A stretch of 64,000 nucleotides of DNA. Origin: Candidatus Bathyarchaeota archaeon (lineage in GTDB: Archaea > Thermoproteota > Bathyarchaeia > 40CM-2-53-6 > RBG-13-38-9). Under the pieces are notes generated by a model. That model was not told the origin of the DNA. It did not search any database and worked only from the letters and a program-made list of their open reading frames with translations. A program made the translations under genes and the position numbers. The stretch is taken from contig CAWECG010000001.1 of the NCBI GenBank assembly GCA_963807605.1, positions 154,620 through 218,619 on the forward strand. The letters are read 5' to 3'. Shown here piece by piece: positions 58,248 to 62,292 of the stretch; position 1 is the first letter of the stretch; each line of letters starts with the position of its first letter.

Positions 58248-58439
58248 CTAGACGCCAAAGATCCGTCTCAGCGCCCAAATGACTATCCCTGCTAGGAAGG
58301 CTAGACCAAGCACCATCATGAAGACTAATGCGTAGGTAACTACTCTCCCAAGCAACTTCAGATCCAAATAGCTCTCCTCTCCTTTCTTATCTTTGTCTTC
58401 AGATTTCCTACCGTATCGTCCTGCCAACACCCAGGTCAC
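58248..58439 (-). CDS. hypothetical small membrane protein (1 TM), last gene of the Hdr-like cluster
   Basis: 63 aa with a charged N-terminus and one hydrophobic helix. Confidence 0.3.
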   Translation of the reverse strand: MTWVLAGRYGRKSEDKDKKGEESYLDLKLLGRVVTYALVFMMVLGLAFLAGIVIWALRRIFGV

Positions 58440-58612
58440 CGGCAGAACCTGTTGGTGTGCTATCGTGCTTTAATTCTTTGGGGCTGAATCTCAGATCAGT
58501 CGCTGATAGACCCGTTCGATGAACTACCCATGCGTTGAACTAGGTTTTCTCGTGAAATACATTGCTAGACAGTTATCATCTATTCCCAGTGGAATTGTTT
58601 CCTGGGGAGTTG

Positions 58613-59113
58613 TCATTTCTCCCTTAGCTTTATTGCTGCCACAAGTGTGGCGAGAGATAGGCCGATGACCGTGCCTCCTGCAACAAGTATCTGAAGTATT
58701 GAGGTTAGAGGGATGGTGACTAGGGGGATGGTTTGTGGTTTGTTGATGAAGTGAGGGTCATGACAGCCGGTGCAATTGATAGTGATAATCCCGTGCTTTC
58801 CGTCTTTCCAAGCTTGGTAGAACTCCGCGTGGCACTGGGCACAGAGAGTAGGGGATTGCTCTATGGGAATTACTTTTCCATTCTTGAGTGTCAACGTTGA
58901 CATATCGGGGCTATGGCATGTTGTGCAGGGGGACGTGGGAAATCTATGCCTATCCATGCTCATGGGATGACATCTGGTACAGTCCACATTATCAGGATCA
59001 GACGCCTTGAAGTACTGGCTCTGCAACACGATGACAGCTACAACTAGAATAAATGCAAGAAAAATAACGATCCTTTTCAGATCTGTTGGAGTTCTTGCTT
59101 CGAGCCTTGTCAT
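58613..59113 (-). CDS. membrane-anchored tetraheme c-type cytochrome
   Basis: Four CxxCH motifs (CTRCH, CTTCH, CAQCH, CTGCH) lie between an N-terminal and a C-terminal hydrophobic anchor. 166 aa. Confidence 0.75.
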   Translation of the reverse strand: MTRLEARTPTDLKRIVIFLAFILVVAVIVLQSQYFKASDPDNVDCTRCHPMSMDRHRFPTSPCTTCHSPDMSTLTLKNGKVIPIEQSPTLCAQCHAEFYQAWKDGKHGIITINCTGCHDPHFINKPQTIPLVTIPLTSILQILVAGGTVIGLSLATLVAAIKLREK

Positions 59114-59129
59114 AATTGCTCACTATGAT

Positions 59130-59996
59130 TCAGTGTTTGAGCGCATTTGCCATAAGATCCATCACCGAGGTTACCTTGACTCCAAGGTTATAGTGTTCGT
59201 TCAGATCATTCAGTTGTGAGCGACAATTCTCGCAAGCGGACGCGACGGCGTCTGGCTTCGTCTCTCTTATCTGTTCAGCCTTCCTTCTTCCAGTCTTCAT
59301 CCTCAACTCTTTGAAATCTGGTACTGCTACAACACCGCCACCAGCTCCGCAGCACCAATTGTATTGCCTGCTTGGGGGGGCCAGTTCTCTGAACTCCTTC
59401 ACAGCGGCTCTTAGAACGGTTCGAGGCTCTTCGTAGATCCCGCCGTTTCGTCCAAGCTGGCAAGGATCGTGATATGTTACGACTTCAGGGTTTGCTGATG
59501 GGTCGAGCTTGACTCTCCCGTCTTGGAGGTACTTGGCCATAATCTCCACGATGCTCTTGACTTGGAAGGGGAAGCTTCTGTTGAACCACTTTGATGCGAA
59601 CTGCTTCATCACGCGGTAGCCATGTCCACACTCAGTCATGACGACGCTCTTTACATTTAACGTCTCGGCTTCCTTTATGATCTGGCCTGTCAGGACCTTG
59701 GCGGCTTCAATATCTCCTAGAAAGTAGCTGTAGTTGGCTGCGTCAAAGAGGCTTAGCGACCAGCTATCTTTGGTATAGTTGAAGATCTTCGCAACCGGCA
59801 TTATCGTGTGTGCTCCTGCTATGGGAACGTACAGCATATCCGCACCCCGGTTCTTGACCGGGATTCTTGCTTCTGGATCCGCAGTCTCTGTCTGAAGCTG
59901 GGTTTCCAAGGTCTTAATTTGTTCCAGGTAGAGATCTTCGTATTGTGAGATGTTCTTTGCCTTCTCAACCCCGACTTGAGCTATCATTGTGAGCAT
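59130..59996 (-). CDS. HdrB/DsrK-like CCG-domain protein (two cysteine-rich domains, the second canonical)
   Basis: The C-terminal domain contains HDPC...NWCCGAGGG...CENC (CxnCCGxmCxxC). The N-terminal domain is degenerate (ECGHG). 288 aa. Its start lies 1 nt after the upstream stop (TGAgATG). Confidence 0.8.
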   Translation of the reverse strand: MLTMIAQVGVEKAKNISQYEDLYLEQIKTLETQLQTETADPEARIPVKNRGADMLYVPIAGAHTIMPVAKIFNYTKDSWSLSLFDAANYSYFLGDIEAAKVLTGQIIKEAETLNVKSVVMTECGHGYRVMKQFASKWFNRSFPFQVKSIVEIMAKYLQDGRVKLDPSANPEVVTYHDPCQLGRNGGIYEEPRTVLRAAVKEFRELAPPSRQYNWCCGAGGGVVAVPDFKELRMKTGRRKAEQIRETKPDAVASACENCRSQLNDLNEHYNLGVKVTSVMDLMANALKH

Positions 59997-59997
59997 C

Positions 59998-60390
59998 TCA
60001 GGGGCTGTGCCTCCGGTCTTGCAGAGGAATCTTCCGGCTGAGACTGGCCAGGGAGGATTCTATGCCGAAAGGGCAGTGGACAGTGCATCTTCTACACAGA
60101 GTGCACTCGAACATGGCATCCGAGACCTCTTTGAAGTTCTCATCGTTAAGCTCCATGGCTTTGAAGAACTTCGGGGCTAATCTTCCTGCGAGGGTGTAGT
60201 ATCTTCTGTGGACTCTGCGCAACAGGGCAAGCTTGTAGGCTGGTGAGTGGATCGGTGCATCGGTCTCGTAGTACATGTGGCAACGTTCTGTACAGGCACT
60301 GCAACGGGTGCAAGTGTCCAAGTGGTAGAATGCCTGTCTGGTCAGTCTCTTCTCAAGTGTCGCTGCAGTCTCTTTTCTGTTGTCAGTCAT
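59998..60390 (-). CDS. HdrC-like ferredoxin domain protein with two [4Fe-4S] motifs (N-terminal half of an HdrD/DsrK-type subunit)
   Basis: CTRCSACTERC and CTLCRRCTVHCP motifs. 130 aa. It overlaps the upstream cytochrome b gene by 4 nt. Confidence 0.75.
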   Translation of the reverse strand: MTDNRKETAATLEKRLTRQAFYHLDTCTRCSACTERCHMYYETDAPIHSPAYKLALLRRVHRRYYTLAGRLAPKFFKAMELNDENFKEVSDAMFECTLCRRCTVHCPFGIESSLASLSRKIPLQDRRHSP

Positions 60391-61103: not shown

Positions 61104-61133
61104 TGGCCCGGTGCTCTTCCATTTTCTTAGCGG

Positions 61134-61373
61134 CTATTTGGTCTTCTTCACATGGAACTTGATCGTTGTTCCTTCGCGTTCTGTTTTAAGGATCTCGTTA
61201 CCTGATGTCTTCGCCCACGCGGGGATATCTGCTAGAGTTCCAGGGTCGGTTGCCAGGACTTCTAGCACTGTCCCTGCTGGGTAATTTCTTATAGCCTCTG
61301 TGAGTTTGACTATGGGCACGGGACAGAAGAGTCCTCGTACATCCAATGTGGCGTTGGGTTTGATCTCAGTCAC
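61134..61373 (-). CDS. tusA: TusA-like sulfurtransferase (CPxP motif)
   Basis: DVRGLFCPVPIVK is the canonical TusA active-site context. 79 aa. Confidence 0.8.
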   Translation of the reverse strand: MTEIKPNATLDVRGLFCPVPIVKLTEAIRNYPAGTVLEVLATDPGTLADIPAWAKTSGNEILKTEREGTTIKFHVKKTK

Positions 61374-61386
61374 TTGTGGTCGCGCC

Positions 61387-61866
61387 CTAAATGAATAATG
61401 TCATTGACGCTCCTTGGCATAGTTCCACGAATGTGGCGGCGCCGATCAAGTCATCCACTTCGGGAATCAGGTCCTCTTTGGTTATGCCGGTTAACTGCAT
61501 CGTGGGAGTGCATGCGTGGAATTTGACTCCTTGTTCTTTTGCCATTTTGATCATTTCTGGGAGTGTCGGCATATTGCTCTTCTTCATTTTGCCCTTTATC
61601 ATCTTGGTAGCCATGGCTGTCATCCCTGGAAGCATGCCGAGGATGTTTGGAATCGGTAGCGAAGGATTCCCGACTGGGGACAACTTGAGATTAGCCGATT
61701 TCTTCTTGGTTATTATGTCCATTCCCCAGAAGGTAAAGTACAGGTGAACATCCCAACCCATGGCCGCAGCGGTCGTGGCTATCATGAACGGTGGAAAGGC
61801 CATGTCGAGTGTTCCTTTAGAGATGACAATTAGAGCTTTCTTTTTCTCTTCAGTCAAATGTCTCAC
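61387..61866 (-). CDS. dsrE: DsrE/DsrF-family sulfur relay protein (soluble DsrE3-like)
   Basis: 159 aa DsrE/DsrF-like fold pattern with a conserved Cys in the FHACTPTM context. GTG start sits within a GGAGGTGA RBS-like sequence. Confidence 0.7.
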   Translation of the reverse strand: MRHLTEEKKKALIVISKGTLDMAFPPFMIATTAAAMGWDVHLYFTFWGMDIITKKKSANLKLSPVGNPSLPIPNILGMLPGMTAMATKMIKGKMKKSNMPTLPEMIKMAKEQGVKFHACTPTMQLTGITKEDLIPEVDDLIGAATFVELCQGASMTLFI

Positions 61867-61953
61867 CTCCGAGAACTTTCTCAGTCTCCCTCAGGTGGCA
61901 CGTGTCCAGTTTTCCAGCGTTTTCTGGTTTCATCAATTGTCTAAACCCATTCC

Positions 61954-62292
61954 TTACTCTCGCCAGCCTGACCTTGTAGTCTTGGCCTCTTTGACCAGCT
62001 GTTCTTTCATGATGGACCTTACTAAGTTACATGCTTCTATGATTCTGGGGTTAGAGAGTGAGTAGTACACGCTTTTTCCTTCTCTTCTCTCATTGATTAT
62101 CCTGTTGCGGCGCATGACCGAGAGATGTTGAGAGACGTTGGGTTGTCTTAGTTGTGTGATGTTTGCAAGCTCGGTGACAGTCTTTTCGCCTTTTTCCAGA
62201 ATGTGAAGTATCTCGAGTCTCTTAGGATTGGTTAGGACCTTGCAGAACTCTGACTGCAGCTTGTACAGGGAGGGTTCGGACTCAGATAGCAA
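61954..62292 (-). CDS. ArsR/SmtB-family HTH transcriptional regulator
   Basis: Winged-HTH pattern NPKRLEILHILEKGEKTVTELANITQLRQPNVSQHLSVMR. 112 aa. First gene of the minus-strand cluster. Confidence 0.8.
   Translation of the reverse strand: MLSESEPSLYKLQSEFCKVLTNPKRLEILHILEKGEKTVTELANITQLRQPNVSQHLSVMRRNRIINERREGKSVYYSLSNPRIIEACNLVRSIMKEQLVKEAKTTRSGWRE

Follow-up and report, generated by a model that had tools for sequence, protein, structure and literature searches.

A widespread gene cassette joining TusA and DsrE2-like sulfur carriers to a DsrMK-like membrane module, with a tetraheme cytochrome c in Bathyarchaeia

Membrane modules of the DsrMK type are known almost only as partners of DsrC, in sulfite/sulfate respiration and in sulfur oxidation; the TusA/DsrE carriers are known as feeders of the cytoplasmic oxidation systems rDsr and sHdr. 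In the DsrMKJOP complex, electrons from menadiol travel through the hemes b of DsrM, reach the noncubane cluster of DsrK and are finally delivered to the DsrC trisulfide, with release of sulfide (PMC10861901). DsrE-type proteins form tight complexes with TusA, and sulfur groups are exchanged between the two (PMC4175335, PMC11094781); the sHdr core genes shdrC1B1AHC2B2 lie in one cluster with lbpA (PMC11094781). The locus described here combines carriers of the second kind with a membrane module of the first. It belongs to a stretch of 64,000 nucleotides (nt) from a Candidatus Bathyarchaeota archaeon (contig CAWECG010000001.1, positions 154,620 to 218,619), which is called the window in the following. 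On the minus strand of the window, at 58248-62292, the open reading frame (ORF) listing and the Pfam/NCBIfam scans revealed a compact co-directional cluster of seven genes. Judged from sequence comparison, its core is a conserved, widely distributed cassette that joins TusA/DsrE2 to a distinct DsrMK-like clade; the version in Bathyarchaeia is a lineage-specific, Tmc-like extension of it. The main features, from the arsR gene onwards, are given below (lengths in amino acids, aa).

61954..62292, minus strand: ArsR/SmtB-family transcription factor, 112 aa, TTG start (NF033788, 87.8 bits, cut-off 55)
61387..61857, minus strand: DsrE2-like sulfur carrier, 156 aa, TTG start after GGAGGTGA (PF13686, 147 bits)
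61134..61373, minus strand: TusA-family sulfur carrier, 79 aa (PF01206, 80 bits, cut-off 28.6)
60387..61103, minus strand: NarI/DsrM-family di-heme cytochrome b, 238 aa, five hydrophobic helices (PF02665, 62.7 bits)
59130..60390, minus strand: DsrK/TmcB/HmcF-type iron-sulfur protein with a CCG motif (the CCG protein), 419 aa if repaired, split here into ORFs of 130 and 288 aa
60058..60059, minus strand: site of the 1-nt insertion (AA instead of A) that splits the CCG gene, located by DNA alignment with contigs L001 and L002
58613..59113, minus strand: membrane-anchored tetraheme cytochrome c, 166 aa, four CxxCH motifs, helices at 9-37 and 136-165

The cytochrome b and CCG genes overlap by 4 nt, and most of the other intergenic gaps are 13-30 nt long; wider gaps are found between arsR and dsrE (87-96 nt) and between the cytochrome c gene and a small gene that follows it (173 nt). 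The listed DsrE ORF starts at 61866, and the recorded form of the protein has 156 aa. A preliminary description of this DNA had reported tightly spaced, co-directional minus-strand genes at this place, and the arrangement was confirmed. It had counted eight genes, however, whereas seven were found, since its HdrC-like and HdrB-like genes are the two parts of one gene split by a frameshift. Its assignments of an ArsR-family regulator, a TusA with a CPVP motif and a NarI-family cytochrome b all agree with the family models listed above.

The distribution of the cassette was analyzed by scanning for relatives of the CCG protein in one genome per GTDB species. At least 579 of the 600 stretches examined were confirmed, and the context counts given here refer to the best 80 loci of these. 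Genes for DsrE and TusA were located directly upstream, on the same strand, in 38 of the 80 loci, and seven further loci were cut by contig ends; among the matches listed in the scan, the locus closest to the window was 47% identical. The hosts of the cassette in GTDB span about seven bacterial phyla. Their labels include Chloroflexota (Anaerolineae and Dehalococcoidia), Actinomycetota/Coriobacteriia, Elusimicrobia, Spirochaetota, Eisenbacteria and Desulfobacterota, the last with Solidesulfovibrio magneticus; single metagenome-assembled genomes (MAGs) labelled Bacteroidota and Pseudomonadota were also found. These hosts are anaerobes, with sulfur and sulfate reducers among them. The order (arsR)-dsrE-tusA-cytochrome b-CCG also occurs in two related metagenome contigs, in Thermofilum MAGs and in Thermoflexus (Chloroflexota), and a contig from Heimdallarchaeota begins with the cytochrome b/CCG pair. 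The order kept in Thermofilum, Thermoflexus and the GTDB loci upholds the earlier suggestion that the sulfur carriers and the membrane Hdr-like module form a real unit.

Phylogenetic relationships of the CCG proteins were reconstructed by neighbour-joining (NJ) with BLOSUM62 distances, midpoint rooting and no bootstrap. The cassette-linked proteins formed one clade apart from 35 DsrK-like proteins of other contexts; the tree, which is without bona fide DsrK, HmeD and HdrD references, thus sets the cassette apart from its non-cassette relatives. Within the cassette clade, the three archaeal sets of CCG proteins (Thermofilum, Promethearchaeota, Bathyarchaeia) cluster with one another. Since Thermofilum carries the core cassette and the archaeal CCG proteins cluster, the cassette is not unusual for TACK archaea, and the contrary statement in the preliminary description fails. 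Two other features of the Thermofilum loci were observed. In L003-L005, genes for a Psr/Phs-type molybdopterin oxidoreductase (catalytic, four-cluster and NrfD subunits) occupy positions 1-3812, about 3 kb from the cassette, and a nitroreductase-family gene (9311-10024) follows the cassette where the cytochrome c gene would be.

The CCG protein carries the CxxCxxCxxxC motif twice (C27/30/33/37 and C96/99/102/106), with cysteines that are invariant or nearly so in alignments of 12 and 46 sequences. It has one complete CCG motif (C310...C346-C347-G...C386xxC389 in the 46 sequences; Pfam also finds one CCG stretch), and Cys254 in the sequence TECGH is invariant in the 46 sequences. One CCG motif together with T/GECGH is the signature common to DsrK, HmcF and TmcB, whereas HdrB and HdrD carry two motifs (PMC10861901). 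By these sequence features, the CCG protein belongs to the DsrK/HmcF/TmcB group. The scores against the curated models are nevertheless well under the cut-offs. The closest homologue of the CCG protein, P0001, reaches 254.8 bits with the NCBIfam DsrK model (NF045796, cut-off 400), and the cassette members from Thermofilum, Thermoflexus, Solidesulfovibrio and Coriobacteriia reach 286, 292, 240 and 300 bits; none of the ten DsrK-like proteins scored reached this cut-off. The CCG protein scores 222 bits against TmcB (cut-off 735) and 181 bits against HmcF (cut-off 750). Its AlphaFold model has a predicted local distance difference test score (pLDDT) of 94. The top fold match in the PDB is EtfD of M. 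smegmatis (9ojn; Foldseek E = 2.6e-12, template-modelling (TM) score 0.69), followed by LutA and HdrB; no DsrK or HdrD was found in the PDB by sequence search.

The cytochrome b gave similar results. Its score with the NCBIfam DsrM model (NF038037) is 93.5 bits (cut-off 300), and with TmcC 22 bits (cut-off 240). Helix 2 holds His82 and His92, helix 5 holds His204, and His222 follows shortly beyond it; the four are kept in 47-51 of 51 sequences. Read from this alignment, the four-histidine pattern is that of NarI for two predicted membrane-spanning hemes.

These results bear on the possibility that the module is an ordinary DsrMK or HmeCD serving DsrC, with DsrAB encoded elsewhere and with TusA/DsrE as mere neighbours. 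The fact that DsrK and DsrM are the top curated models for both subunits would fit such a role. However, the scores remain well below the cut-offs (DsrK, 255 against 400; DsrM, 93.5 against 300), and the cassette clade is separate from the other DsrK-like proteins. Genes of the dsr type were absent from the window as well as from the 17-kb loci of Thermofilum and Thermoflexus; moreover, the linkage to TusA/DsrE spans many phyla that are mostly not known as Dsr organisms. An ordinary DsrMK is therefore considered highly improbable. The scores under the DsrK/DsrM cut-offs, the separate NJ clade and the absence of dsr genes from the window also agree with the earlier placement of the module outside the characterized DsrMK complexes.

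The sulfur carriers are well conserved. In the TusA protein, Cys17 of the Cys-Pro-x-Pro motif (here Cys17-Pro-Val-Pro) is kept in 44 of 45 sequences; the score against the equivalog model of E. coli-type TusA is 57.7, under the cut-off of 78. The DsrE protein had been labelled DsrE3-like, and the label DsrE2-like fits better. DsrE2 (NF047629) is its top NCBIfam model (134.5 bits, cut-off 210; bacterial cassette members 73-79). The best match in the PDB is 2QS7 of S. solfataricus with 88 bits, followed at 47 bits by 3MC3; these structures have been named DsrE2B and DsrE3A, respectively (PMC4175335). The single cysteine of the DsrE2-like protein, in the sequence HACTP, is invariant in all 47 sequences. 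The bacterial cassette members are also under every curated cut-off. The cut-offs of DsrK, DsrM, TmcB and DsrE2 are thus reached by none of the cassette members tested, and NCBIfam (June 2026) has no model for the cassette. A full-text literature search found no published description of the cassette, which is not proof of absence; the literature retrieved on TusA/DsrE with DsrMK-like partners deals with Dsr, the YTD cluster or sHdr. The combination had been called undescribed, and this stands for the cassette; it does not stand for the cytochrome c/cytochrome b/CCG trio, which is the known design of Tmc, Hmc and DsrMK(J). A reading of the locus as a YTD cluster was rejected, since no YedE/YeeE or Chp gene is present.

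The CCG gene is interrupted in the window. The ORF described earlier as HdrC-like (59998-60390) covers positions 33-140 of the DsrK model, and the HdrB-like ORF (59130-59996) covers positions 149-435. P0001 (95% identical) is one unbroken protein of 419 aa. Almost all of the 120 best homologues listed consist of one protein chain, about 410-450 aa in length, and the shorter entries among them come mostly from short contigs or truncated gene calls. Alignment with the related contigs L001 and L002 revealed an extra A in the window, GGCATAGA[A]TCC. When this A was deleted in silico, an ORF of 419 aa was obtained, with 392 of 419 residues identical to P0001 (94%). The separate HdrC and HdrB subunits are thus an artefact of the frameshift, and the relatives are fused. 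The split ORFs are recorded solely from NCBI and ENA, whereas the neighbouring genes are recorded from Logan too. In Logan, the contig L093 (an independent assembly of run ERR10755942) starts exactly at the indel base. Such a start is what a branch in the assembly graph would give, and it points to disagreeing reads. The CCG locus is accordingly treated as one DsrK-type gene that was either misassembled or recently broken (error or polymorphism).

If the insertion were real and fixed, the catalytic subunit would be truncated, the operon dead and the system of this genome a pseudogene. In favour of this, the frameshift stands in the deposited assembly, the ORFs recorded in NCBI/ENA are the split forms, and the repaired 419-aa protein is not on record in the protein collections searched. 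The break of the Logan assembly at the indel base suggests disagreeing reads, however, and not a clean fixed variant. The two halves are otherwise undamaged, the repaired ORF has 94% identity to an intact orthologue, and every flanking gene is intact. A pseudogene seems rather unlikely on this evidence.

The cytochrome c is the part by which the Bathyarchaeia version differs from the broad cassette. All of its homologues keep the four CxxCH motifs and His56, His107, His121, Met53 and Met71. The basic N-terminus and the helices at 9-37 and 136-165 would place the heme domain outside the cytoplasm (predicted topology). In the relatives, Ala-x-Ala-like sites are found past the first helix, and the N-terminal helix may be a cleaved signal peptide. 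The earlier description of a tetraheme cytochrome anchored at both ends is hence right about the four motifs and the helices, with the N-terminal anchor in doubt. No specific cytochrome family was matched by the family models, and a profile search of the PDB returned only generic multiheme motifs. The AlphaFold model, built from 8 sequences, has a pLDDT of 59. As a side observation, the heme module of the 166-aa cytochrome is repeated 2 to 15 times in tandem in larger proteins (P0272-P0280, 304-1028 aa), and the shorter relatives P0272, P0275 and P0281 have a hydrophobic helix at both ends.

Homologues of this cytochrome c are few. A word-indexed search of a collection of 5.8e9 proteins gave only 9, and a hidden Markov model (HMM) search of 1.84e9 representatives gave 7 at E <= 1e-30 and 70 at E <= 1e-10. 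The gene lies directly 3' of the CCG gene in L001, in L002 and in all five more diverged contexts retrieved, in which the cytochrome c is 43-70% identical and its gene often overlaps the CCG stop codon. No ORF with at least two CxxCH motifs was found within 4 kb of the CCG gene in the 80 GTDB loci, Thermofilum or Thermoflexus. Judged from these loci, the cytochrome c is confined to this archaeal lineage, where it is a conserved subunit. To our knowledge, outward-facing multiheme cytochromes have seldom been reported in Bathyarchaeia.

A paralogous trio was found on the contigs L094 (4535-7195) and L095, with a cytochrome b 67%, a CCG protein 58-65% and a cytochrome c 43% identical to those of the window. 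The paralogous CCG protein has 481 aa, and an insert of about 60 aa adds ferredoxin-type matches. No DsrE or TusA gene was found anywhere on L094 (7.6 kb). A gene for an exported NiFe hydrogenase small subunit (Tat signal, C-terminal anchor) is located on the other strand of L094, 3.5 kb from the trio; a ParA/CbiA-type ATPase gene was also noticed upstream of the trio. Since the cytochrome c also stands beside a b/CCG paralogue without TusA and DsrE, it is not tied specifically to the sulfur relay. There are two distinct associations, a broad one of the carriers with b/CCG and a narrow one of b/CCG with the cytochrome c, and the window has both.

The size and layout of the cytochrome c (about 160 aa, N-terminal helix, four hemes) are like those of the NapC/NrfH-type quinol dehydrogenases, which raises the possibility that it takes over or complements the role of the cytochrome b quinol site and is not a link to an external donor. 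A weak match to the NrfH model (TIGR03153) points in the same direction; whereas its 33 bits are far under the cut-off of 134, and the other matches are to generic multiheme motifs. The motif of heme 1 in NrfH is CxxCHxM, and it is not kept here; the invariant methionine belongs to CxxCHxxxM instead (Met53, four residues after the histidine). The presence of a second, C-terminal helix and the occurrence of the heme module in tandem arrays of large cytochromes (up to 980 aa) also argue against a NapC/NrfH-type enzyme, which is regarded as quite improbable.

The ArsR protein also matches PF01022 (E = 1.7e-15). Its orthologues, which are clearly alignable, precede the cassette in 20 other loci of both domains. 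Two further features lie in front of the gene.

62322..62329, minus strand: TATA-like box TTTAATAG, about 30 nt upstream of the arsR start, the probable operon promoter
62296..62313, no strand assigned: imperfect palindrome TATTCGAA-N2-TTCGAATA, a candidate ArsR operator, which abuts the arsR start

The TATA-like box is invariant in the alignment with L002 and the more distant L089. The palindrome has 2 mismatches in the window and is perfect in L089 (76-93), just before an arsR whose product is 63% identical; L002 too has the palindrome immediately upstream of arsR. In a Chloroflexi MAG locus (L014, 3964-3981), a copy of the palindrome that has 2 mismatches immediately precedes the arsR of a bacterial cassette, which suggests that the operator is conserved across domains. 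Neither a second copy of the palindrome nor an evident TATA-like box was seen upstream of dsrE, for which GGAGGTGA serves as the ribosome-binding site. A single autoregulated transcript that begins at arsR and extends at least as far as the cytochrome c gene would fit these observations, which are not proof of it.

The mode of sensing by the ArsR protein might be different from that of known sulfur sensors. The BigR/SqrR/SoxR/sHdrR sensors have two conserved cysteines (Cys50 and Cys116 in HdsHdrR), which form a sulfur bridge (PMC12423496). In the cassette ArsR, Cys17 in the first helix is shared by 19 of 21 sequences and Cys88 by only 8 of 21; both were judged to be off the positions of the BigR/SqrR sensing pair. 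A BigR/SqrR-type sensor was rejected, since the protein scores 57 bits with the BigR model (cut-off 155) and only Cys17 is well conserved.

The four genes, usually together with arsR, are conserved together across phyla, and the NarI-type and CCG genes are translationally coupled; these would fit a carrier-linked b/CCG oxidoreductase. The chances appear about even that the operon core encodes a membrane oxidoreductase of the DsrMK type, which would act in the cytoplasm on sulfur bound to TusA and/or the DsrE2-like protein instead of to DsrC. In this model, sulfane sulfur (a persulfide, a polysulfide or a cysteine sulfur bridge between TusA and DsrE2, which possibly mimics the DsrC trisulfide) would be passed to the active site of the CCG protein. 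There it would be reduced to sulfide by electrons that cross the membrane via the two b hemes. In most hosts, the electrons would come from quinol, as for DsrMK. In the Bathyarchaeia lineage, the added outward-facing tetraheme cytochrome c would pass electrons from a donor outside the cytoplasm to the b hemes, like TmcA in Tmc, and the candidate donor is an exported hydrogenase such as that encoded near the paralogous module. The ArsR protein would repress the operon from the palindrome, which overlaps its own promoter, and would probably be released by a thiol-reactive sulfur signal via the conserved Cys17. The whole system might serve the cell to respire or dispose of its internal sulfane sulfur without DsrAB and DsrC.

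Several points weigh against this carrier-reduction model. The catalytic gene carries a frameshift in the deposited assembly, and Cys17 of the ArsR protein is not positioned like the sensing cysteines of BigR/SqrR. The cytochrome c also accompanies a carrier-free b/CCG pair, and the partner chemistry need not involve the carriers. EtfD, the closest solved fold, moves electrons from a cytoplasmic donor to menaquinone. The function is drawn from homology and gene context only, and for genes of quinone, cytochrome c maturation and DsrC the host-genome context examined was the 64-kb window.

The example of EtfD also suggests that the same complex might work in reverse. In that case, thiol or persulfide sulfur of TusA/DsrE2 would be oxidized at the CCG site, and the electrons would leave via the b hemes for quinone or, in Bathyarchaeia, for the cytochrome c and an external acceptor; this reading is considered unlikely. 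Modules of the DsrMK type are also found in sulfur oxidizers, where Dsr acts in reverse (PMC10504309), and TusA and DsrE are best known from sulfur oxidizers (PMC11094781). A membrane-anchored multiheme cytochrome would also be a typical electron outlet. However, the hosts are strict anaerobes, and no sHdr, Sox, rDsr or LbpA was found in the neighbourhood. An enzyme with one CCG motif can make or break S-S bonds and is not known to convert sulfane sulfur to sulfite; moreover, enzymes of this group have been shown to work in vitro only as reductases (PMC10861901).

The cluster is flanked by the gene of elongation factor 2 (EF-2; convergent) on one side and by a ClC channel gene (divergent) on the other. 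The ClC-type chloride channel gene (62329-63999), with a C-terminal CBS domain, is divergent from arsR and continues past the end of the window; the two genes have in common an intergenic region of at least 36 nt that holds the TATA-like box and the palindrome. The remainder of the 64-kb window contains genes for amino-acid biosynthesis, ribosomal proteins, exosome, proteasome and RNase P. No dsrAB, dsrC, dsrJOP, hdrA, hydrogenase or cytochrome c maturation genes were found within the window, and no further CxxCH-bearing ORF of at least 80 aa elsewhere in it. The absence of HdrA from the cluster, as noted in the preliminary description, thus extends to the whole window. The last gene of the cluster follows the wide gap after the cytochrome c gene.

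58248..58439, minus strand: small single-helix membrane protein, 60-63 aa, no Pfam/NCBIfam family match

This gene is kept downstream in L001 and L002 (95%), L088 (71%) and L092 (66%). In L090 and L092, it is set apart from the cytochrome c gene by a cupin gene on the opposite strand. The gap of 173 nt and the intervening cupin gene in some relatives make its membership in the system doubtful; of the earlier claim about this protein, the presence of a small single-helix membrane protein is confirmed, whereas its belonging to the system is uncertain.

Some other features of the window were also observed. In contig L001 (92-97% identical; stretch 5853-8847), the EF-2 gene and a diphthamide-synthesis gene are separated by two genes, one for a DNA ligase (531 aa) and one of 60 aa. 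The corresponding interval of the window (55185-56083) is only 900 bp long, has no long ORF, and its G+C is down at 43.6%. By this comparison, the ligase gene near EF-2 was lost or moved in the genome of the window; a DNA ligase gene adjoins the cassette in Thermofilum and in a Bathyarchaeia relative. The EF-2 protein of the window, which is part of a 599-kb NCBI contig, has 87-89% identity to proteins from Candidatus Bathyarchaeia MAGs, and the placement of the genome in Bathyarchaeia is based on this match. Several archaeal EF-2 proteins 77-82% identical to that of the window carry the NCBI labels ‘[Eubacterium] cellulosolvens’, ‘Methylomirabilota bacterium’ and ‘Saccharimonadales bacterium’, and probably come from Bathyarchaeia contigs mis-binned into bacterial genomes. 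At 4274-5800, within a block for lysine/arginine (LysW-type) and branched-chain amino-acid biosynthesis, a homocitrate/isopropylmalate-synthase-like protein (HMGL-like and HCS_D2 domains) ends in an Lrp/AsnC ligand-binding domain. No tRNA genes and no Rfam families at the gathering threshold were found in the 64 kb by tRNA and Rfam scans; the window is nonetheless rich in genes for ribosomal, exosome and RNase P proteins.

With regard to its meaning, the cassette might tentatively be an unrecognized, widespread quinol (or cytochrome c):carrier-bound sulfane-sulfur oxidoreductase, with TusA/DsrE2 in the role of DsrC; this is a possible reading, to which we give less than even weight. If true, protein-bound sulfur would be connected to the electron-transport chain of the membrane without DsrC. 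Anaerobes outside the known Dsr organisms, namely Chloroflexota, Coriobacteriia, Spirochaetota, Bathyarchaeia, Thermofilum and Asgard archaea, could then conserve energy from intracellular zero-valent sulfur, and the cassette could be an evolutionary precursor or a sister of the DsrMK-DsrC step in sulfate respiration. The many uncultured anaerobes that carry the cassette include Bathyarchaeia and Asgard relatives, and it may be under ArsR-type control of its own. These questions bear on sulfur cycling in anoxic sediments and hot springs and on the origin of the last step of sulfate respiration. The Bathyarchaeia version suggests a Tmc-like entry or exit point for extracellular electrons. Cultivable carriers of the cassette, such as Solidesulfovibrio magneticus, make the hypothesis directly testable.

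Compared with known systems, the cassette shares with sHdr the presence of TusA and DsrE carriers beside CCG-domain proteins and an ArsR-family regulator (PMC11094781, PMC12423496). However, the HdrA, the separate HdrB and HdrC and the lipoate-binding protein of sHdr are absent from both the cluster and the window; the module of the cassette is membrane-bound with hemes, its regulator is without a pair of the Cys50/Cys116 type, and its hosts are anaerobes and not sulfur oxidizers. The mycobacterial EtfD (9ojn) resembles the CCG subunit as a membrane-bound iron-sulfur/CCG protein that communicates with the quinone pool. The sequence identity is 19%, however, and EtfD is a single fused polypeptide of 742-1042 aa whose partner is the electron-transfer flavoprotein and not a sulfur carrier. 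The HdrDE enzyme of cytochrome-containing methanogens, which has a methanophenazine-linked HdrE and CoM-S-S-CoB as its substrate, also combines a membrane cytochrome b with a fused ferredoxin/CCG subunit and reduces a disulfide with electrons from a membrane carrier. HdrD has two CCG motifs (PMC10861901), whereas one CCG motif and the TECGH cysteine are found here; no HdrD-specific model was among the NCBIfam matches of the CCG protein, and no methanogenesis genes are present in the window.

The cassette also resembles DsrMK. Both consist of a NarI-family di-heme cytochrome b and a cytoplasmic subunit in which two [4Fe-4S] motifs are combined with a single CCG motif and the T/GECGH cysteine; among the curated models, those of DsrK and DsrM score highest for the two subunits of the cassette, and the substrate is in both cases a small cysteine-bearing sulfur carrier (proven or presumed). 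The differences are the scores under the cut-offs, the separate clade, the absence of dsrAB, dsrC and dsrJOP nearby, and the nature of the carriers, since TusA and DsrE2 have one cysteine each whereas DsrC has an arm with two. The cytochrome c, unlike the triheme DsrJ, has four hemes, is unrelated to it and has no evident His/Cys heme.

In TmcABCD, a tetraheme cytochrome c, a cytochrome b and a CCG protein are brought together. The Bathyarchaeia version has the trio in common with this complex and with HmcABCDEF of Desulfovibrio, as its tetraheme cytochrome c lies outside the cytoplasm, its cytochrome b in the membrane and its protein with one CCG motif on the cytoplasmic side. For the CCG subunit, the models of TmcB and HmcF rank second and third, and TmcC is a weak match for the cytochrome b. 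Unlike Tmc, the cassette has no TmcD, no fourth tryptophan-rich protein and no match to a model of TmcA, a type II cytochrome c3; its cytochrome c is membrane-anchored and encoded after the other subunits and not before them, and Tmc is without a link to TusA/DsrE. The c/b/CCG architecture is common to Tmc, Hmc and DsrMK(J) (PMC10861901), and the resemblance to Tmc is one of analogous assembly from the same parts, not of orthology.

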